From: Patescibacteria group bacterium | GTDB taxonomy: Bacteria > Patescibacteriota > Patescibacteriia > Patescibacteriales > UBA12465 | Assembly: GCA_041658665.1 (NCBI GenBank) | Contig: JBAZZR010000003.1 | Location: 4,125 to 68,124 of the forward strand | Direction of reading: 5' to 3' | Length of the DNA stretch: 64,000 bases | Shown: positions 403 to 8,749 of the stretch, in pieces | How positions within the stretch are numbered: the stretch's first letter is position 1 | Layout: every line of letters begins with the position of its first letter | The notes under the pieces: model-generated | What the model saw: only the letters and a program-made list of their open reading frames with translations | Databases searched by the model: none | What the model was told of the DNA's origin: nothing | Position numbers and translations under genes: made by a program

Positions 403-1776
403 ATGACCAATCATCCGAAACTTACTCATTCGACAAATCATAATAACGCCCAAGAAGCCCCGCAAAAATTTTCTGATTTAGGTATCAGTGAATCAATTTT
501 AGAAATTTTAAAAAAACTTAATTTAGATATTCCCACCCCCATTCAGCGCAAAACCATTCCTATTGCTATCGCTGGTCAAGATTTAATTGGCGTCGCACAA
601 ACGGGAACCGGAAAGACTTTTGCTTTTGGCATTCCGATGCTCCAGCGTTTAGGCGCCACCAAGAAACAAGGATTAATTATTGCTCCGACTCGCGAGCTTG
701 CCTTACAAGTTGAAGAAAGTTTAAAAAAACTCGGCCAAGCTTTAGGGCTAAGAACGGCGCTTTTAATCGGCGGCGAAGCTTTAGACCGCCAACTTTTTTC
801 TCTTCGCAAAAGACCGCATATTATCGTCGCCACTCCCGGACGACTGATCGACCACCTTAAACGCCGAACTTTTAAATTAGATCAAATTAATACCCTAGTG
901 TTGGATGAGGCGGATATGATGCTGGACTTAGGTTTTGCCCCGCAAATTCAAGAAATTCTAAAACAGGCGCCGCCCGAGCGTCAAACTATGCTATTTTCGG
1001 CTACCATGCCAGCGGCAATCGTTAAAATCGCCGCTAATTACATGAAATTACCAGTCAGTATTGAGGTAGCGCCGTCAGGCACGACCGCTTCTCAAGTTGA
1101 TCAAGAAATATTCATTATTAAAGGTGAAGAACGTTTTGAGCATCTCCAGAAAGTTCTTAGCCATTACGCTGGCTCGGTTCTCGTCTTTGTTCGAACTAAG
1201 CACGGCGTTAAAGCTCTAACGCTTAAACTGTGCTCGCTGGGTCATAGAGCGGTAGAGATTCATTCCAACCTATCTTTAAGCCGTCGACGCGCCGCCTTGA
1301 ATGACTTTAAGTCTAAAAAAGAGCGTATTCTAGTAGCCACTGATGTGGCCGCGCGTGGCCTAGATATTAATGCGATTGAATTAGTAGTTAACTATAATTT
1401 ACCAGATAATTCTGAGGATTATGTTCATCGAATCGGCCGAACCGGACGAGCGGGACAAGTAGGCAAAGCGATTACCTTCGCGACCTCTAACGAACAAAAA
1501 GAAATTTACGCTATTGAAAAATTGATTAATAAAAATATTAAACGAACCGAATTTGTAAAATTTTCTAGAGAATCATCCCTCGCGCCAACCAACCAAAAAA
1601 ATAAAAAATCATTTAGAGGAAACCCAAGAGGAAACCGACGTCATAATTTCAGCGGTGCGAGTGCTCCTGCGACTGCGCCGACCGCCGACCGCCGTCAGCC
1701 TGGTTTTTCAGGAAGAACGGGGAAGTATAAACAGTCTTCGCCCCGAAAATTTTCCCGCCGAACTTTTTCTCGGTAA
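403..1776 (+). CDS. DEAD-box ATP-dependent RNA helicase with basic R/G/S-rich C-terminal tail
   Basis: Q-motif PTPIQ, Walker A AQTGTGKT, LDEADMML (DEAD), SAT, ARGLD and HRIGRTGR motifs, all in canonical order. Confidence 0.9.
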   Translation: MTNHPKLTHSTNHNNAQEAPQKFSDLGISESILEILKKLNLDIPTPIQRKTIPIAIAGQDLIGVAQTGTGKTFAFGIPMLQRLGATKKQGLIIAPTRELALQVEESLKKLGQALGLRTALLIGGEALDRQLFSLRKRPHIIVATPGRLIDHLKRRTFKLDQINTLVLDEADMMLDLGFAPQIQEILKQAPPERQTMLFSATMPAAIVKIAANYMKLPVSIEVAPSGTTASQVDQEIFIIKGEERFEHLQKVLSHYAGSVLVFVRTKHGVKALTLKLCSLGHRAVEIHSNLSLSRRRAALNDFKSKKERILVATDVAARGLDINAIELVVNYNLPDNSEDYVHRIGRTGRAGQVGKAITFATSNEQKEIYAIEKLINKNIKRTEFVKFSRESSLAPTNQKNKKSFRGNPRGNRRHNFSGASAPATAPTADRRQPGFSGRTGKYKQSSPRKFSRRTFSR

Positions 1777-2029
1777 CAATTCACTCTTGCGCCAAGCTTA
1801 ATTATATATTAAAATCAGTAAAGAAATAAGAGAATACTAGTTATTTTAAAAATCATCCTCAAAACCCTATCAAGGGATATTAGCAATTATTTTTTGAACT
1901 TAAGCTTACTTCGTTAATATCGATTTATTTTCGAAAAATAGTAGAGGAGACCCGGATGGATCTCCTCATTGGATTTAACTCATATTTAGTCCGTAACGAA
2001 TTAAATATCTTGGGGGTGATTTTTAAAAT
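1777..2029 (+). other. 253-nt gene-free leader upstream of the reverse transcriptase (possible structured RNA)
   Basis: No ORF in the track. There is a 7-bp hairpin (gaggaga 1944-1950 / tctcctc 1961-1967, 10-nt loop) and flanking complementary heptamers (ttcgtta 1910-1916 / taacgaa 1994-2000). A near-consensus SD gggggtga (2012-2019) lies 10 nt before the ATG at 2030. Confidence 0.3.
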
Positions 2030-3235
2030 ATGTTTAGTAGAATAATAAGTTATCAGAATATCGAGGCGGCTTATTTAGAAATAATTGAGCAATTCGCGGC
2101 CGACCGACGTAATTTTAGATATCACGGCCTAGATAATATTTTTTTGCACGATCTCGACCTAAAATCTCAAGCAATAATTAAAATTATTCAAACCGACCTC
2201 CAAAAAATTAAAGAAATTGAACCGGCTCTCGCCGTACAAATTCCTAAAAAAAATAAACCGGAGCAATATCGAGAAATTTTTATTTATAACCTTAAGGAGA
2301 GAATAAAGGCGCAAGCTATTTATCGCGTAATCTTACCAATCTTTGAAAATAATTTTTCTGACCGACTTTTTTCTTATCGTCCCGGGAAACCTCCTTATTT
2401 AGCGGCACAGAGCTTTTGTCGTCGCTACCGTCGGGAATTCTCCAAAGATCAGGCTCTCATAATAGATTTAAAAAACTACTCTGATCGGATAAATCGAACG
2501 CTGATGTTTCAGCAGCTGCAAAAAATTATTAGTGACCAAAAAGTTTTAGCGCTTCTCCGTTTATTTATTTTTAATAAAGTCTATCGCCAAGGAAAATACA
2601 CTGATCCCGCCCAGGGACTAGTGCAGGGCGTCCCTTTAATCGCTCTTCTCGCTAACTTATATTTAACGGACTTAGATTTTAAATATCAAACTAAGTCCGC
2701 TTTTTATGTACGGGTTGGCGATGATTTGGCTTTTTTAGATCCCGCTCTCGATAAACTCCAAAAAATACTAGCGACCCTCGCCAACGATTTAACGGCCCGG
2801 GGACTAGAACTTAACCAACAAAAATTATTTTTAGGCGCGGCTCGCGACCAATATTCTTTTTTAGGCTATAATTTCAAAGCCGGACTTATTAGTTTAGAGC
2901 CGGTATTTATTAAAAGGACGATCGCCGACTGGCAAAGAATTTTGACTTATAAAAACGCGCCGCCTGACGCCAAATTAAATTTACTAAGCCGAATAATGAG
3001 CAAGCCAGAAAATAATTTTAACCGACAATTTCAAAAAATAGTAAAAGACAAGTCCCAAATTAATAATTCGGCGCAAATTAAAAAAATATCGGAAAATTTC
3101 TTTGCCATTTTAACTAAGTTTATTTACAAACATTACTCGCCAAGAAATCGCCGGTTATTAGAAGAGAAATTAAAAAATATAAAAATAATGTCTTTATACA
3201 GTATATATAAAAAATTCCATTATGATCGAAATTAA
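2030..3235 (+). CDS. Free-standing reverse transcriptase (RT palm/fingers plus about 120-aa helical C-terminal region)
   Basis: RT motifs in order: IPKKNKPEQYREI (1-2), FSYRPGKPPYLA (3), LIIDLKNYSDRI (4), GLVQGVPLIALLANLYL (5), YVRVGDDLAF (motif C, VGDD at 2714-2725), GLELNQQK (6), FLGYNF (7). No maturase X, endonuclease, DGR SQ or retron VTG motif seen. Confidence 0.85.
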   Translation: MFSRIISYQNIEAAYLEIIEQFAADRRNFRYHGLDNIFLHDLDLKSQAIIKIIQTDLQKIKEIEPALAVQIPKKNKPEQYREIFIYNLKERIKAQAIYRVILPIFENNFSDRLFSYRPGKPPYLAAQSFCRRYRREFSKDQALIIDLKNYSDRINRTLMFQQLQKIISDQKVLALLRLFIFNKVYRQGKYTDPAQGLVQGVPLIALLANLYLTDLDFKYQTKSAFYVRVGDDLAFLDPALDKLQKILATLANDLTARGLELNQQKLFLGAARDQYSFLGYNFKAGLISLEPVFIKRTIADWQRILTYKNAPPDAKLNLLSRIMSKPENNFNRQFQKIVKDKSQINNSAQIKKISENFFAILTKFIYKHYSPRNRRLLEEKLKNIKIMSLYSIYKKFHYDRN

Positions 3236-4940
3236 GGAACAAGTGCGGCTGTTAAAAAAAATTAGAATCAATCGTCATAAACAAGCGACAACCGCCAACT
3301 CGGTCTTACAGTATAATTATTTACTAATGTTTTTTAAAAAACATCAACTAATTATACTAGGCACTATCCTCCTTTTACTAACCCAAGGGATTATTGAAAC
3401 ATCTCTAGTTTTTATTAGTAAAAACCAACTAACTTTTAGCAGCCCAAACATAACTAGTTCTTTTTTTTGGTGGTTATTTATCACTTTTTTCCTTATTTTT
3501 CTGGTTAATTCCTTTGTCGCCATTAGACAGGAAAAGACCGTAGTCGTTCTTTTTATTAATAGTCTTCGCCGACGAATTTTTAAAAATTATCTTGGTAAAT
3601 CATTAAACGGCATGAAAGCAGAGGCCCAAGCCGCTTTAATCGCTAAAATTTCCTACCACCTACCTCTAGTATCCCTAGGCATATCCAATTCATTATTTGG
3701 CTTTATTCGCTGGCTAATCTATTTAACTTCCGCCGTGGTCGTCGCTTCTTTCGCTGGTTTAAATATCTTAGTTATTTTAATAAGCTTTTTATTATTGTCG
3801 ATTATGATCGCCGTCCCCGCCTACTTTATCGCTCAACGCTATATTTCTCAAGAAGTTACTTTCTACTCTCAAATTATTAAATTAATTGATTTAAGCGCCT
3901 CGGAAAAATATTTTCTCAAAAGTTTTAATTTAGAAACAACCACCCTAAAAAAATTCGATCGCCTAGTAGATTTTGACTCTATTTTTCGAATTCGACGAGA
4001 TTTATGGATGAAAATGGGCTTTAAAATAGTCTTCGCTCTTCTTCTGATTATCTCTGTTTTAATTCATCTTTTTCAAAATAATATTACGGCCACTATTAAT
4101 TTAATAAGTCCGGAATTAAAATTTCTCTACGCCTTTCTTCTAATTTATTTATCGCGGGTCGCGACGGAAGCCCTCCGCATCGGTCTTTACTTTTTTCCTG
4201 GTCAATTAGGGTTATCCCTCACTATTACTCCCCAAGGAAAATATCTTCATCGGGCTAACCGCGTCGATATTAAAAAAGAGATTACTTTCTATAGCCGCAA
4301 AATTAAATTATTTAAAACCGGTCGTTATTATCGAAAATTAAGTTTTGACTTTTTAAGAGGCGGCCGCTATCTATTTTATGGTGCTAATCTTTCGGGCAAA
4401 ACCACCTTGGCTAAATTATTCTGGGGTAGCGAGGCTTACCAGTCTAAAGCACTAAAAATAAAAATAGACGGCCACCGTCTAAATTTTTCCGACTATCAGC
4501 GCTTATTTAATAGAGGCTATTTTTTCCAACCCAATTTTTATTCACAAAAAAGCTTGCTAGAATTAATTCTTGGTTTAGACCGAGAAGCCACTGATTTTTC
4601 AGAAATTGACCGCGCTTTAAAAATTATCGCCGCCTATCCATCGTTAGTAGAACTGGTCTCAACTGATAATAACTTTAGCTTAGCGGCCGATAAAATCTGG
4701 AACAACCCCGCAGCAGCCTTTGCCCTACATTCTTTACACTGTCTGGTCAACCGCCCCTCCCTCATTATTATTGATAATCTCTGGCTAGACCTAAATTATC
4801 CCGCTATCAATAAAATACTAAAAATCATCAGCCAAGAACTGCCCGAAGTAATTTTAATTATTTTCGCTAGCCAGGATATTAATCATTTAACTTATAACAA
4901 CCGCTATGACTTGGATAAAAATTTTGAGACAAAAGACTAA
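3222..4940 (+). CDS. ABC exporter-like membrane protein (6 predicted TM helices plus nucleotide-binding domain with degenerate catalytic motifs)
   Basis: Start overlaps the RT stop by 14 nt. Six hydrophobic helices lie in the N-terminal about 330 aa. Walker A GANLSGKT (4380-4403) is intact. The signature is replaced by FSLAA. Walker B reads LIIIDN (Asp 4773-4775, then Asn instead of the catalytic Glu). No H-loop His is seen in IIFASQD. Confidence 0.7.
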   Translation: MIEIKEQVRLLKKIRINRHKQATTANSVLQYNYLLMFFKKHQLIILGTILLLLTQGIIETSLVFISKNQLTFSSPNITSSFFWWLFITFFLIFLVNSFVAIRQEKTVVVLFINSLRRRIFKNYLGKSLNGMKAEAQAALIAKISYHLPLVSLGISNSLFGFIRWLIYLTSAVVVASFAGLNILVILISFLLLSIMIAVPAYFIAQRYISQEVTFYSQIIKLIDLSASEKYFLKSFNLETTTLKKFDRLVDFDSIFRIRRDLWMKMGFKIVFALLLIISVLIHLFQNNITATINLISPELKFLYAFLLIYLSRVATEALRIGLYFFPGQLGLSLTITPQGKYLHRANRVDIKKEITFYSRKIKLFKTGRYYRKLSFDFLRGGRYLFYGANLSGKTTLAKLFWGSEAYQSKALKIKIDGHRLNFSDYQRLFNRGYFFQPNFYSQKSLLELILGLDREATDFSEIDRALKIIAAYPSLVELVSTDNNFSLAADKIWNNPAAAFALHSLHCLVNRPSLIIIDNLWLDLNYPAINKILKIISQELPEVILIIFASQDINHLTYNNRYDLDKNFETKD

Positions 4941-6120
4941 AAAGGGGGATGGCCGTAATTGGCTAGCCCTACTTATTTTTTTCGGACTACCCCTAGTGTT
5001 ACTCATCGGCGGTTTATCTTTAGGCGTAAAATTCTTGCCTTTCTACCAAAAAGCAAAAAATATAATTTTAGAACCGGCCCAAATAATAGAAATTAGCGAA
5101 CCATTTTCTGGTAATTTATATTTTAATGATGAACTCGGCATAGATAACTTTTCCAGCCTAATTATTGCTAACCTCGATACCGCTAAATATAAAATTGAGC
5201 TAGCTATGTATTCCATGGATAGCGCGACTATTGCCGACGCTCTCTATCGCGCCGCCGATCGAGGCGTACTAATTAACTTAATTTTTAGTGATAAACACCA
5301 AGCAATAATTAATAAATTATTTAAAAATCCTCATCAAAATATTACAATTAATTTCCGTAGTTCTGATTTAGGATATATGCATCACAAATTTCTCTTAATT
5401 GATCGCCAGACAACCGCCCCTAAACTATTTTTTAGTTCTTATAATTTCACGAATATCCAAGGGAAATATGATCCTAGTTTTATTTTAGAGACTAGCCGGC
5501 CGGAGTTAGTGGATATTTTTGGACAAGAGTTTGGACGTTTAGCCGCAGGCCAACACGGCGAAGCAAAAAAAGCGACGACTAGTAATCCCTTCGCTGCTCT
5601 AATAAAGTACCCCGAGGGTTTTCTAGAAATTTGGTTCTCGCCGGGAACGGCTCAAAAAAACGTTAAACGCCGTATGTTAAATTTAATTAAAGACTCAAAA
5701 AGTAATATCAAAGTCATGATCTGGACTTTGACCGATAAAGAGATCGCCGCGGCCTTAGTCGCCGCCGCCCAAAAATTACCAGTTAATATTATTACTGATG
5801 ATTCTAATTGGTCGGTGGACAATTCTGTTTTTCCGATTTTAGCGGCGCAGAAAGAAAGACAAAATTTAAATAATCTAGAAATAATTACCGACAGTAAAAA
5901 TAGTGAAGGAATAAATAAACTATATACCGGCAATAGTCTTAATTCGTTCTTGCATCATCATCTGATGATTATTGATGACCAAACCGTGATTTTTGGCACT
6001 AATAATTGGAGCTACAACGGTTTTTCAAAAAACAATGAATCAATCATGATTTCTAATATAGCAAGCCTCACTAGCGCTTTTGAACAATCATACTCAACTA
6101 ACTATAATAAAAATAAATAA
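4906..6120 (+). CDS. Membrane-anchored phospholipase D (HKD) superfamily protein
   Basis: Start overlaps the upstream stop by 35 nt. A basic N-terminus is followed by one TM helix (WLALLIFFGLPLVLLIGGLSLGV). First motif is HHKFLLID (HxKxxxxD, 5380-5403) followed by SSYNFT. Second motif is HHHLMIID (HxHxxxxD, 5953-5976) followed by GTNNWS. Confidence 0.8.
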   Translation: MTWIKILRQKTKKGDGRNWLALLIFFGLPLVLLIGGLSLGVKFLPFYQKAKNIILEPAQIIEISEPFSGNLYFNDELGIDNFSSLIIANLDTAKYKIELAMYSMDSATIADALYRAADRGVLINLIFSDKHQAIINKLFKNPHQNITINFRSSDLGYMHHKFLLIDRQTTAPKLFFSSYNFTNIQGKYDPSFILETSRPELVDIFGQEFGRLAAGQHGEAKKATTSNPFAALIKYPEGFLEIWFSPGTAQKNVKRRMLNLIKDSKSNIKVMIWTLTDKEIAAALVAAAQKLPVNIITDDSNWSVDNSVFPILAAQKERQNLNNLEIITDSKNSEGINKLYTGNSLNSFLHHHLMIIDDQTVIFGTNNWSYNGFSKNNESIMISNIASLTSAFEQSYSTNYNKNK

Positions 6121-6270
6121 TTTGACTATTCTTATATCTTTAATTTGAAGAAAACAGCCTAAATACGCGTAATAATCAGGCCAGGATTAATAAAATCACC
6201 GATTAAACAGGAATAATTATAAATAAAATTTATTATTTATCTTATTTTTGTGCTATTATATTAAGATAAT

Positions 6271-7401
6271 ATGCCAAAATACCAATATATAATCGAAAAT
6301 AACGATACCCGTCCGGATCAGACTCTCATAATAACGCTTAAGCCCAAGACCAATAAAGATATCTTTAATTTTCAGCCCGGTCAATATGCGATGTTATCTT
6401 TTTATGACAAGGCCGGTAAATTTTTCATCAATCATCCTTTTTCTATCGCCAGTTCACCGACGCAAAAAAATTATTTAAAATTTGGCATAAAAATAATCGG
6501 CCAATTTACACAAAATTTAAAGAATCTCGCTCCTGGGAATAAGGTCGAAGTTTTAGGTCCTTTCGGTAATTTTATTTTTGATGAAACTAAATATCCCGTT
6601 GCCGTATTTATAGCAGGCGGGGTAGGAATAACGCCATTTATGAGCGCTATTAATTACGCGACTGATCGAAACTTGTCCAACCAAATATTCTTATTATATA
6701 GTAACCGGACTATTGCCGGCACTCTTTTTTATGAGGAGATTAAAAAATTAGCCGCTCAAAATCCTCATTTTCATCCTCAACTAAAAATTACTCAAGAACC
6801 AATTAATAATCTTAGTTATTGTGAAAACGGCTATATCACTAAAGAAACAATCACGAAAAATATTCAAGAGCTAGATCATAAAGATTTTTTCCTTTGCGGA
6901 CCGGGACAGTTTATGAAAACGATGGAAAAAAATTTAATTGAACTGGGTGTCCCTAACCACAAAATTCATCAAGAAGCTTTTAATGCTACTCCGAACCTAT
7001 CCCTACGAGAAAATGCTAAAAATATCTCCCTAGTTTACGGCCTGACAGTTGTCTTATTTATTTTTTTTCTAAACTTTATTCAACCCGCTAAAATTAGTTC
7101 GGCAAACGAGTCGGCTAAAATTTTCGAGCCAGCTCCAATTAATCTGATTAACAATGCCGTAAATAATCGGCGCAATGACATTATCAGCTCTAAAAAGTTA
7201 TTGCTTAGCACTATTAGCTCTCTCCTGACTAAAAATATAAATACCAATACTAAACCTACCGCTGGATCAGCGCCAATAACTCAGCCCGCTAAAACTAATC
7301 CCGCGCCCATTATTCAACCCGTTAAAATAGCGACACCAATTATTAAGACCCCGGCTCAAAATCGCGCTCCCGTCGTAACGCCAAGAACTAGGGTCTCTTA
7401 A
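6271..7401 (+). CDS. NOX/ferric-reductase-type FAD/NAD(P)H-binding dehydrogenase domain protein with C-terminal TM helix and P/T/A-rich tail
   Basis: FAD motif HPFSIASSP (from 6433), NAD(P)-binding GGVGITPF and FLCGPG motif. A hydrophobic helix (LVYGLTVVLFIFFLNFI) is followed by a proline/threonine/alanine-rich tail. Confidence 0.7.
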   Translation: MPKYQYIIENNDTRPDQTLIITLKPKTNKDIFNFQPGQYAMLSFYDKAGKFFINHPFSIASSPTQKNYLKFGIKIIGQFTQNLKNLAPGNKVEVLGPFGNFIFDETKYPVAVFIAGGVGITPFMSAINYATDRNLSNQIFLLYSNRTIAGTLFYEEIKKLAAQNPHFHPQLKITQEPINNLSYCENGYITKETITKNIQELDHKDFFLCGPGQFMKTMEKNLIELGVPNHKIHQEAFNATPNLSLRENAKNISLVYGLTVVLFIFFLNFIQPAKISSANESAKIFEPAPINLINNAVNNRRNDIISSKKLLLSTISSLLTKNINTNTKPTAGSAPITQPAKTNPAPIIQPVKIATPIIKTPAQNRAPVVTPRTRVS

Positions 7402-7414
7402 TTATTAAAATATT

Positions 7415-7801
7415 ATGAAAAAAATTAAAAAAATATCAACTTCATTATTACTAATTTTTTTATTCGCGCTGACGAGTCAGCCGATATTAGCTGAAGATGA
7501 TGACTATGACGATTACGAAGAAAATAATTACAGAGAAAATAATGACGATCGGCCAGAAGTAATTTCCGCCGTTGAGGAGACCTCGGCCCCGGTAACACCA
7601 CGAGTATCGACGATTGATGCCCCCGCCGCGACTGGCTTTCTGCCCACAGTAAACATTACTAATAGTTTAATTGATTCCGATCAAGACGGAATCATTGATA
7701 TTTTAGATACTCATCCCGGTGAGGACGACTTTGCCTTTAGGATTCAAGACGCTAATAAAAATGGCCTGATTGATGATTTAGAATATTTAATGAACAAATA
7801 A
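7415..7801 (+). CDS. Small secreted acidic protein with a pair of EF-hand/dockerin-like Ca-binding loops
   Basis: Signal peptide MKKIKKISTSLLLIFLFALTSQPILA, an acidic D/E/Y run, then two 12-residue loops (DSDQDGIIDILD and DANKNGLIDDLE) matching DxDxDGxIxxxD/E. Confidence 0.55.
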   Translation: MKKIKKISTSLLLIFLFALTSQPILAEDDDYDDYEENNYRENNDDRPEVISAVEETSAPVTPRVSTIDAPAATGFLPTVNITNSLIDSDQDGIIDILDTHPGEDDFAFRIQDANKNGLIDDLEYLMNK

Positions 7802-7807
7802 TCTAAT

Positions 7808-8749
7808 ATGCAGGCCTATAAAAAAATCCAGGCTCTGGGCACCGAAGTAGAATTTTATTTACAATCTGATTTAAAAATTGACTTAGAGCCAGATTTTTTA
7901 GAACTCAGCCTCTTAATTGATAAATTTGATCAACTATTTAACCGTTTTTCGGCGAGTAGCGAACTAAGTCGATTAAATAAAGCTACAAATAATTTCCAGG
8001 CTAACCCCGAATTAACTAAAATTCTACTAGTAGCCAAAGACTTTTATAATTTAACGGGCGGAATCTTTGACCCTACTATTTTACGAACTTTAGAAGAGCA
8101 GGGATATGACCGAAGCTTTGATTCTTTAGATTTAGGTGGTTCTAACGAACTAATAGAACGCCGACCAAAAACGATTGATTTTAAACAAATAATAATTAAC
8201 GCCGAGAACAATTTTATTACCAAGCCCCCCGAGCTTAAAATAGATTTAGGGGGAATCGGTAAAGGGTATATCGTTGATAAACTCGTTAAACATCTAAAGG
8301 ACAAAGGATATAAAAATTTTTGGATTTCGGCTGGCGGAGACATGTATCTCAGTGGTTTAACGGCCGACGGACAAACTTATCAAATCGGCGTTCAAAACCC
8401 CTTAAAAATCGCTAGCGATTTATTTAATATCGCAATGACGGCTCAAGAGCTGGCGGTCGCCACTTCAGGAATCGCGAAAAGACAATGGTCGGATAAACAC
8501 GGCCACCGCTTTAATCATTTAATTGATCCGCGAACCAGATCTTCGGTAAATAATGGTCTGCTCGCCGCGACGGTTATTTCTGATCAAGTAGTGAAGGCGG
8601 ATATTTATGCTAAAACAATCTTAATTTTAGGAGAAAAAGAGGGAATTAGTTTCATTGACCAGCAAGAAAATAGCGAAGCTCTCATTATCGATCGGAATTT
8701 AAAAGTTAGTTTGTCAAAAAATATGAATAAATATTTAACAAAAATCTAA
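7808..8749 (+). CDS. apbE: FAD:protein FMN transferase (ApbE family)
   Basis: ApbE-like motifs FDPT, DLGGIGKGY, ISAGGD, VATSGI and HLIDPRT. About 310 aa, typical of the family. Confidence 0.8.
   Translation: MQAYKKIQALGTEVEFYLQSDLKIDLEPDFLELSLLIDKFDQLFNRFSASSELSRLNKATNNFQANPELTKILLVAKDFYNLTGGIFDPTILRTLEEQGYDRSFDSLDLGGSNELIERRPKTIDFKQIIINAENNFITKPPELKIDLGGIGKGYIVDKLVKHLKDKGYKNFWISAGGDMYLSGLTADGQTYQIGVQNPLKIASDLFNIAMTAQELAVATSGIAKRQWSDKHGHRFNHLIDPRTRSSVNNGLLAATVISDQVVKADIYAKTILILGEKEGISFIDQQENSEALIIDRNLKVSLSKNMNKYLTKI

Follow-up and report, generated by a model that had tools for sequence, protein, structure and literature searches.

Introduction

Reverse transcriptases (RTs) of group II introns, retrons and the defence-associated RT (DRT) systems form ribonucleoproteins (RNPs) with their RNAs. 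In retrons, a structured non-coding RNA (ncRNA) closed by an inverted repeat (a1/a2) lies upstream of a free-standing RT, effector genes follow downstream, some types have transmembrane (TM) effectors, and the spread is accessory and patchy. Retron type I-A (retron-Septu) combines an ABC-type ATPase (PtuA) with an HNH nuclease (PtuB). The DRT and UG/Abi systems (DRT2, DRT9, DRT10/UG17; UG26, UG27) pair an RT with a cognate ncRNA, which lies upstream and serves as template or scaffold. Another class, the group II intron-like (G2L) RTs, is defined as closest to group II intron RTs and without the intron RNA structure; neither a dedicated ncRNA nor fixed membrane partners are reported for the G2L groups in the same review (PMC8632793). 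The present study concerns a locus in a 64,000-nucleotide stretch of DNA (the window) from a Patescibacteria group bacterium (GenBank assembly GCA_041658665.1, contig JBAZZR010000003.1, positions 4,125 to 68,124 of the forward strand), where an RT gene (open reading frame 1, ORF1) is followed by genes for an ABC-exporter-like protein (ORF2) and a phospholipase D (PLD)-superfamily enzyme (ORF3).

The locus is a four-part accessory module, in which an ncRNA, a group II intron-like RT, a degenerate ABC-exporter-like protein and an outward-facing PLD are inherited together. With retrons it shares the upstream structured RNA, the closing inverted repeat, the free-standing RT, the downstream effector genes and the patchy occurrence, and with type I-A the pairing of an ABC-type NTPase and a nuclease-family enzyme; this is an analogy of layout only. 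A cognate upstream ncRNA is also what it has in common with the DRT and UG/Abi systems. No description of the system was found in Rfam 15, PADLOC-DB 2.0 or the searchable literature. An initial annotation, made from the sequence alone, had been unable to match the composition to a described type, and the PADLOC and NCBIfam matches, all generic or below cut-off, agree with it.

Co-Inheritance of the Module

The order RT-ORF2-PLD was found at 49/49 loci with enough downstream DNA, over RT identities of 35-94%. The initial annotation had read the three ORFs as a coupled cassette around a free-standing RT, chained by overlaps of 14 nt (RT/ORF2) and 35 nt (ORF2/ORF3). The coordinates are exactly as it gave them, and the trio is a single co-inherited unit in all 49 loci. 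The overlap is kept in 35/36 loci at the RT/ORF2 junction and in 35/36 at the ORF2/PLD junction, which is far beyond chance. It was also correct that neither downstream ATG has a Shine-Dalgarno (SD) sequence of its own, as a purine run of that type is not seen before either of them. The three ORFs are translationally coupled.

Searches started from ORF2 and from the PLD each returned tight sets of uniform length (66 and 76 clusters, respectively). The most distant ORF2 examined likewise had the RNA, the RT and the PLD as its neighbours, and in the contexts checked neither family turned up apart from the RT. The refutation that the initial annotation had proposed, an ABC-PLD pair widely conserved without an RT and an adjacency not kept in relatives, is thus not borne out in these contexts.

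Two deep branches extend this result. The basal member (L101) has RT, ABC protein and a third ORF, with overlaps. In a divergent branch (L099, 3721-8996), the PLD comes first, followed by a gap of 784 nt, the RT and then the ABC protein. This PLD is secreted, with a signal-peptide-like N-terminus, two HxK motifs and an LTD domain, and the Walker B region of the ABC protein (I-I-I-L-D-N-F-W-H-S-L-D) has the same degenerate Asp-Asn form as ORF2. The gap holds two tandem repeats of 197 nt (92% identity), which have no match to the covariance model of the ncRNA (R1, see below) and whose + strand fold is no better than that of shuffled sequences (z = -1.2). The survival of an RT, a degenerate ABC exporter and an extracytoplasmic PLD through a change of gene order is strong evidence of a functional link. 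One further candidate (L097) was ambiguous and was left out of the count; its RT is convergent with a canonical ABC exporter carrying DEP and SHR motifs.

It could be supposed that an RT gene came by chance to lie before an unrelated ABC-PLD operon, and the only point in favour of this is that ABC transporter genes are common. The conserved synteny refutes it: the 49 loci, the overlapping ORFs, the cassette-specific families and an association kept through gene-order change leave fortuitous adjacency a practically negligible probability. Judged from the alignments of homologues, the RT active site, the TM core of ORF2 and the catalytic residues of the PLD are under purifying selection.

Table 1. 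Features of the module in the window
Feature	Position	Strand	Remarks
Structured ncRNA, ~190 nt	1838-2030	+	Five helices P1-P5 and a pseudoknot; overlaps first base of RT gene
P1 5' strand (closing helix)	1842-1862	+	Pairs with 2010-2030; inverted repeat I2
Single-stranded A-AAC motif	~1861-1865	+	Family-wide; follows P1 5' strand
P2, short hairpin (CCC-loop-GGG)	1865-1876	+	Consensus fold; pair 31/157 splits CG:28 / UA:20
Pseudoknot 5' strand, GAUAUUA, in J2/3	1876-1882	+	Partner is P3 apical loop, 1915-1921
P3, long helix	1886-1942	+	Conserved apical loop GUUAAUAUC; 1915-1921 is pseudoknot 3' strand
P4 hairpin	1944-1967	+	Sequence and length hypervariable; placed in unaligned insert columns
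J4/5, then P5 hairpin (1982-2008)	1968-2008	+	J4/5 conserved and single-stranded (AUUGGAUUUAA); P5 pairs covary
P1 3' strand	2010-2030	+	Includes gggggtga (2012-2019); extends to the A of the RT start codon
RT gene (ORF1)	2030-3235	+	401 aa
ORF2, ABC-exporter-fold half-transporter	3222-4940	+	572 aa
ORF3, PLD-superfamily phosphodiesterase	4906-6120	+	404 aa

The Structured RNA Upstream of the RT

The 253 nt between the upstream gene and the RT were initially annotated as a gene-free leader with a near-consensus SD sequence, gggggtga. The length and the purine-rich run stand, but the leader does contain a gene, that of a conserved structured ncRNA, in which gggggtga belongs to the 3' strand of the closing helix P1. 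As the leader is thus the RNA component of the module, the system moves from an RT with partners to an RT-ncRNA system.

When the upstream regions of the RT homologues were aligned, this leader was found to be strongly conserved. P1 is formed by a 21-nt inverted repeat with 90% complementarity, and the fold of 1838-2032 has a minimum free energy of -58.6 kcal/mol (z = -5.8). An RNAalifold consensus from a MAFFT alignment of 16 loci contains 45 pairs, 30 of them with compensatory changes. On this structure-blind alignment, 94.5% of the cells are paired; sliding the partners by 1-3 columns lowers the value to 37-53%, and column shuffling gives 79.5 ± 0.9%, with the observed value reached by 0/1000 shuffles. 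In 49 distinct sequences, whose alignment was fitted to R1, compensatory changes occur at all 45 modelled pairs, including 12/12 P1 pairs (for example GGGGAUAA/UUAUCCUC in L003). The pseudoknot lay outside R1. In 45 distinct sequences, pairing over its 7 bp reaches 97.5%, and four positions show compensatory changes, such as AU:24/GC:19 and UA:36/CG:9. Across the family, R1 matches immediately before the RT, even in clades at 35-42% RT identity; the genome of the window contains a single RT and a single RNA copy, the one at this position. Taken together, this covariation shows that the RNA is real, with five helices and a pseudoknot all under structural selection.

Searches of Rfam gave nothing at gathering scores and only chance-level matches at E values up to 10. 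At the same two settings, the RNA domains Intron_gpII and group-II-D1D4 were not found nearby, which speaks against the possibility, raised in the initial annotation, that the RT might be the remnant of a group II intron.

The RNA also occurs apart from the start of an RT gene. Two or three tandem copies are present in L012/L036, L005, L060 and L009. Copy 1 in L012 is followed by ATG-TTT-CGC-TAG, a three-codon remnant of an RT start, then by a terminator hairpin and a new promoter-like box. In L009 (7133-7955), three copies each carry a TATAAT box and differ mainly in P4, which is in general the main difference between tandem copies of one locus; copy 2 there also has an insert of ~100 nt. In L067, L076, L009 and L071/72/80, a terminator-like hairpin separates the RNA from the RT ATG. 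The orphan and tandem copies with their own boxes or terminator suggest that the RNA acts as a discrete RNA and not merely as a 5' untranslated region (UTR). TATAAT-like boxes are visible by eye in relatives; for the window, a promoter scan did not list a + strand sigma-70-like site just upstream of the RNA.

Group II intron proteins bind intron domain IVa, which holds their own SD sequence and start codon, as in Ll.LtrB/LtrA. It is conceivable that the RNA is only a cis-acting 5' UTR operator descended from domain IVa, which the RT would bind to repress its own synthesis and from which no cDNA would arise. In favour are the group II intron-like character of the RT, the binding of domain IVa established for Ll.LtrB/LtrA, and the extension of the P1 3' strand over the purine-rich ribosome-binding region as far as the start codon. 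However, this does not account for the orphan and tandem copies, among them L012 copy 1 with its own terminator and start remnant and the L009 copies with their boxes. In distant clades, P1 ends at least 15-30 nt before the ATG, or a terminator intervenes; and five helices with a covarying pseudoknot exceed the needs of an operator. A purely cis-acting operator is thus quite unlikely. With the ribosome-binding region and the start codon of the RT hidden in P1, translation of the RT is probably also held back by the RNA, and such cis-regulation may coexist, as a secondary role, with the RT-ncRNA-effector reading preferred here.

Logan contigs over the locus showed no unusual joints or extra forms. 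In one groundwater run (X2), window positions 2002-2039 are covered by a 38-nt unitig with a depth of 37, against ~5 around it. It consists of the P1 3' strand and the RT start, and probably reflects a conserved strand and ATG common to several strains or copies.

The Reverse Transcriptase

ORF1 is an RT (RVT_1, 2e-17). Across 27 homologues, the catalytic residues D146 and G230-D231-D232 are invariant, and the C-terminal tail carries a conserved basic motif, R374-R375-L-L. Profile comparison, which the initial annotation had called for, placed generic RT (132 bits) and the group II intron RT/maturase family TIGR04416 (126 bits, cut-off 300) above the UG/DRT classes. Of these, UG26 scored 110, UG17 84 and UG27 75 bits (PADLOC), with RT-Cas1 and UG4 also among the matches, and the NCBIfam models Drt2 and Drt3a reached 30-33 bits against cut-offs of 390 and 200.

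Structural comparison points in the same direction. Among solved structures, the best sequence match is the group IIC intron protein GsI-IIC (3e-20), followed by G2L4 (4e-6) and the retron Ec86 RT (3e-3). The AlphaFold2 model (pLDDT 91) superimposes on GsI-IIC at full length, with a template modelling score of 0.75-0.77 over ~420 columns. GsI-IIC is also the best fold match (2e-18), ahead of DRT9, G2L4 (3e-14) and the RTs of diversity-generating retroelements (DGRs; 1e-13). The layout comprises fingers/palm with RT0 and 2a insertions, thumb/X and a D-like tail, and the endonuclease domain is absent.

The initial annotation had described an RT that lacks maturase and endonuclease domains and has an extra helical tail of about 120 aa. 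The endonuclease domain is indeed missing, but the maturase domain is absent at the Pfam level alone. The tail exists but is not extra: the full-length match to GsI-IIC identifies it as the thumb/X and D-like region of an endonuclease-less group II-type RT. From its sequence and predicted structure, the enzyme is classed as a group II intron-like (G2L-type) RT with an intact active site.

In a quick maximum-likelihood tree, the family forms a clade of its own (SH-aLRT, the approximate likelihood ratio branch test, 97). Its neighbours are free-standing or doubled RTs, then RT-TPR-primase fusions of the TOTE conflict system and RT-Cas1 fusions. Among the nearest outgroup RTs are proteins of 830-860 aa (P0308, P0310, P0321) with two tandem RT domains and GIIM-like thumbs; at the locus of one of them (L100, 6001-8505) no ABC or PLD neighbour was seen. 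A profile search of 1.84 billion representatives yielded ~50 full-length clusters of the family before the scores dropped. In one locus (L086, 5001-5741), the RT stops early, at 5741, and this may be a decaying copy or an assembly error.

The ABC-Exporter-Like Protein

ORF2 scores 23.2 bits against Pfam ABC_tran, under the cut-off of 25. Its AlphaFold2 model (pLDDT 85) shows all of a type IV ABC half-transporter: six TM helices and, in the cytoplasm, a nucleotide-binding domain (NBD). Foldseek matched this model to MsbA, TAP, TmrAB, PglK, HlyB and PCAT1 at ~1e-13 over ~560 columns, and a comparison with the ESM Atlas agrees with the ABC-exporter fold.

The fold had been recognized in the initial annotation, with the remark that only Walker A was kept. 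The second part needs correction. In 31 homologues, Walker B D518 and the D-loop D523 are invariant as well as Walker A K393. The catalytic Glu is replaced by a near-invariant Asn (N519), the H-loop His is missing, and only a degenerate signature motif is left. Conservation of this sort fits a nucleotide-binding protein with hardly any hydrolysis; the NBD can probably bind nucleotide but not hydrolyse it, and a homodimer of ORF2 would have two dead sites. The motifs of the TM and coupling regions are more conserved than the NBD, and polar residues inside the TM helices are conserved.

A predicted complex of ORF2 and the RT scored 0.08 against a mark of 0.32, which counts neither for nor against binding. 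In L051 (~6193-7871), ORF2 is broken by a stop or frameshift near 6825, and this may be a decaying copy or an assembly error.

The PLD-Superfamily Enzyme

ORF3 matches PLDc_2 (2e-33, 115 bits) and has two domains. Motif 1 (H159-x-K161-x4-D166 ... N180) and motif 2 (H350-x-H352-x4-D357 ... GTNN) are invariant in 26 sequences. The initial description as an N-terminally anchored PLD with two HKD motifs therefore holds for the anchor and the two domains but not for the second motif, which is H-x-H-x4-D and not H-x-K. Among profiles and PDB entries, it is matched best by NucT, Nuc, Zucchini/MitoPLD and DrmC, all under curated cut-offs. In the clade of L009, L071, L072 and L080, the PLD has 497-525 aa with a C-terminal extension of ~100 aa that is absent in other members.

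A signal-anchor with the N-terminus inside is predicted at approximately residues 19-41, and exactly one N-terminal hydrophobic segment is present in 37/37 PLD homologues. The 15 residues before this segment contain 212 Lys/Arg in the 37 homologues, compared with 61 in the 15 that follow. The positive-inside rule places the catalytic domain outside the cytoplasmic membrane, in agreement with the outward orientation proposed earlier from ORF3 alone.

Distribution, Mobility and Surroundings

The carriers are Patescibacteria, including Falkowbacteria and Magasanikbacteria; the genome of the window has 1.03 Mb. The RT family is present in 7/25 sampled species genomes of the genus and in 7/401 sampled genomes of the class (<2%), and it was found in 0/400 other genomes of the phylum. 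The copy in a genome of another family is 59% identical, and same-genus copies are 38-41% identical. Two genomes each hold two divergent copies, and the flanking genes differ in every context examined. The module is accessory, rare and patchy, and it moves horizontally among some Patescibacteria.

The initial annotation had asked whether the cassette sits in variable regions. In a relative (G007; L036 5417-6003 and L012 1014-1503), tRNA-Tyr is followed after 13 nt by a cassette with two RNA copies, and fpg lies on the other side of the cassette. The gap between these genes measures ~120-170 nt where the cassette is lacking in G002 and 1.0-1.4 kb in three other genomes, so in this relative the module occupies a variable, tRNA-adjacent site, and a sister species has the same site empty. 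In the genus, synteny is not kept around the DEAD-box helicase gene that precedes the module in the window. The cassette is only slightly lower in GC than its flanks, and composition gives no signal.

A search of phage records found no member of the RT family, only distant RTs with <30% identity. In IMG/VR, the RT was met at a single locus (L090); its sequence is the same as part of L063, a contig of 976 kb, with equal coordinates and scores of the RNA match, and it is probably not viral. A scan of IMG/VR for the RNA motif gave 31 pattern matches, 0 of which were confirmed by the covariance model; they were discarded as chance matches.

The patchy spread, the differing positions, the one tRNA-adjacent insertion and the descent of the RT from a mobile intron would also suit a selfish retroelement. 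Such a cassette would spread by reverse transcription of its own transcript, with the RNA as the recognition site of the RT and the PLD as integration nuclease. This is very improbable, since a repeat search found no terminal repeats or target-site duplications around the cassette of the window, and no ribozyme domains were found with Rfam. Furthermore, genomes have one or two divergent copies and not a near-identical family, the RNA lies at the 5' end of the transcript and not at the 3' end, and a PLD outside the cell could not cut the chromosome. Long direct repeats, as expected for a DGR-type template/variable repeat pair, were not found in 1600-6400 either.

In the window, the neighbourhood consists of housekeeping genes. 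The DEAD-box helicase gene (403-1776) ends directly before the 253-nt leader, and its product has a long, basic Arg/Gly/Ser-rich C-terminal tail of ~80 aa. Downstream, from 6271, follow genes for an FAD/NAD oxidoreductase, ApbE, a ferric-reductase-like protein, a major facilitator superfamily transporter and UvrB. The segment 6271-9588 looks like a flavin-based membrane electron-transfer cluster: the oxidoreductase has a C-terminal TM segment and a Pro/Ala/Thr-rich tail, the ferric-reductase-like membrane protein has a TSP3 repeat, ApbE is a flavin transferase, and a small protein without assignment is also encoded. Elsewhere, type IV pilus/type II secretion system genes and DprA adjoin some cassettes. 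The L009 cassette has two IS200/IS605-type Y1 transposase genes and dprA downstream.

Proposed Mechanism and Biological Role

From these components, a mechanism can be proposed. The RT would bind the ncRNA to form an RNP, which would either copy part of the RNA into cDNA or keep the RNA as a sensor; the best template candidates would be the hypervariable P4 and the 3' half of P5. At the same time, P1 would mask the ribosome-binding region and start codon of the RT and so probably limit its translation. The state of the RNP could be read at the cytoplasmic face of ORF2, which, with nucleotide bound and not hydrolysed, would serve as a switch rather than a pump. ORF2 may then gate or feed the PLD on the outer face of the membrane, and the PLD would cut phosphodiester bonds in nucleic acid or in outer-leaflet phospholipid. 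The outcome could be envelope exclusion, or abortive infection brought about by damage to the membrane.

A role in anti-phage defence or another conflict is the most likely one, although it is proposed tentatively. It is suggested by the retron/DRT-like layout, the relatives of the RT in conflict systems and the accessory phyletic pattern. The initial annotation had already put forward a defence role, and its standing could not be raised by the surroundings, which are housekeeping genes and not defence islands.

Several observations weigh against this role. An extracytoplasmic PLD is out of reach of phage DNA in the cytoplasm, so the usual logic of nuclease effectors fails. The outward-facing enzyme excludes a cytoplasmic nuclease effector and points to envelope exclusion, outer-leaflet damage or an envelope function outside defence. 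Across the loci, the neighbours are housekeeping or pilus/competence genes, with no known defence genes. Lipid enzymes lie close downstream of two cassettes, namely a Patatin with an SdpI-like protein in L001 (12604-13410) and a PAP2 phosphatase in L091 (9743-10276); in both loci, a hemerythrin gene then follows on the minus strand. Lastly, the conserved motif after P1 in the RNA alignments is A-AAC and contains no G of the retron branching type, which makes 2'-5' priming of the retron kind unlikely.

Part of this evidence would also suit a role in envelope physiology. Patescibacteria depend on scavenged lipids and nucleotides. The PLD and the MsbA-like ORF2 could act on host-derived phospholipids, by processing or flipping them, or could make extracellular nucleic acid ready for uptake by cutting it, with the RT-RNA pair as regulator. 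The extracytoplasmic PLD domain, the lipid flippases that share the ORF2 fold (MsbA, PglK), the conserved polar TM residues, the Patatin and PAP2 genes, the pilus/secretion genes and DprA next to other cassettes, and the absence of a defence-island context are all consistent with this. However, basic scavenging should be common, and the module occurs in <2% of the sampled class genomes and in 0/400 from elsewhere in the phylum. Within the genus its occurrence is patchy, its genomic places differ, the sequence of the PLD is nearest to nuclease-type members, and the strict co-inheritance of an RT and a pseudoknotted RNA is left unexplained. This role is therefore considered unlikely.

A more specific possibility is that the output of the system itself crosses the membrane, which is distinctly improbable as matters stand. 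A short cDNA or RNA-DNA product might be threaded or presented by ORF2 to the outward PLD, which would cut, transfer or tether it at the cell surface; this product version is held with the same reserve. Alternatively, and with no greater confidence, the RNP might be a cytoplasmic sensor that switches the extracellular enzyme on, with the ATP-bound, non-hydrolysing ABC scaffold relaying the signal.

Significance

With this module, the RT-ncRNA systems gain a new architecture, based on a group II intron-like RT, and a new RNA family, which bears on the domestication of mobile-intron RTs. Its effector pair reaches across the membrane to an extracellular enzyme, so the logic of cytoplasmic toxins and nucleases does not transfer to it; to our knowledge, the known RT systems have no membrane-spanning effectors that end in an extracellular enzyme. 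If the output does cross the membrane, it would be the first RT-ncRNA system of that sort, in which a domesticated group II intron RT controls chemistry outside the cell. Patescibacteria are episymbionts with tiny genomes, and traffic of nucleic acid and lipid through the envelope is central to their biology; we know of few defence systems in them. The compact pseudoknotted RNA, with its hypervariable hairpin and sometimes in tandem, and the RT of 401 aa are tractable for biochemistry and possibly for RT-based tools.

Comparison with Known Systems

Each component differs from its nearest described relatives. ORF2 shares the six-helix TM domain and C-terminal NBD with the type IV ABC exporters (MsbA, PglK, TmrAB/TAP, HlyB) and is comparable to degenerate-site ABC proteins, but it lacks the competent NBD expected of an exporter, with Asp-Glu, the H-loop His and LSGGQ. 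The PLDc_2 domains of ORF3 are those of the nucleases Nuc, NucT and Zucchini and of the defence PLDs DrmC/DpdK. In contrast to these, ORF3 has two fused domains instead of a homodimer, an HxH second motif, a membrane anchor and an outward orientation. The search with PADLOC-DB 2.0, which the initial annotation had recommended, returned only generic RT and DrmC/DpdK domain-level matches, and ORF2 had no meaningful match.

With GsI-IIC, the RT shares size, domain order and the absent endonuclease domain. It is set apart from the group II introns by its TIGR04416 score (126 bits against 300), by the lack of Rfam matches to intron domains upstream or downstream and by the overlap of ORF2 with its stop codon. 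It agrees with the definition of the G2L RTs, being free-standing, group II-like and without ribozyme RNA; G2L4 is nevertheless a weaker match than GsI-IIC (4e-6 by sequence; 3e-14 against 2e-18 by fold), and the family is a clade of its own among unnamed representatives. A DGR differs in its template/variable repeat pair, which was not found in 1600-6400, and in the weaker fold match of its RT (1e-13).

Compared with DRT and UG/Abi RTs, the scores for UG26 (110 bits) and UG17 (84) fall below those for generic (132) and group II (126) RTs, so the RT does not belong to the UG/Abi classes, and it is structurally nearer to GsI-IIC than to DRT2 or DRT9. ABC-exporter and PLD partners were not found for any DRT in the literature covered. 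Retrons differ in their RT, as shown by the match to Ec86 (3e-3 against 3e-20 for GsI-IIC), and in their RNA, which here has five helices and a pseudoknot. They differ also in their effectors, which here are a membrane-bound, exporter-fold ABC protein with a dead catalytic site and a PLD outside the cell. The layout is thus most like that of retrons and DRTs, but RT class, branching G and the PADLOC and NCBIfam cut-offs all place the cassette outside both. The best reading of the cassette is that of a new RT-ncRNA-effector module of the retron/DRT kind.

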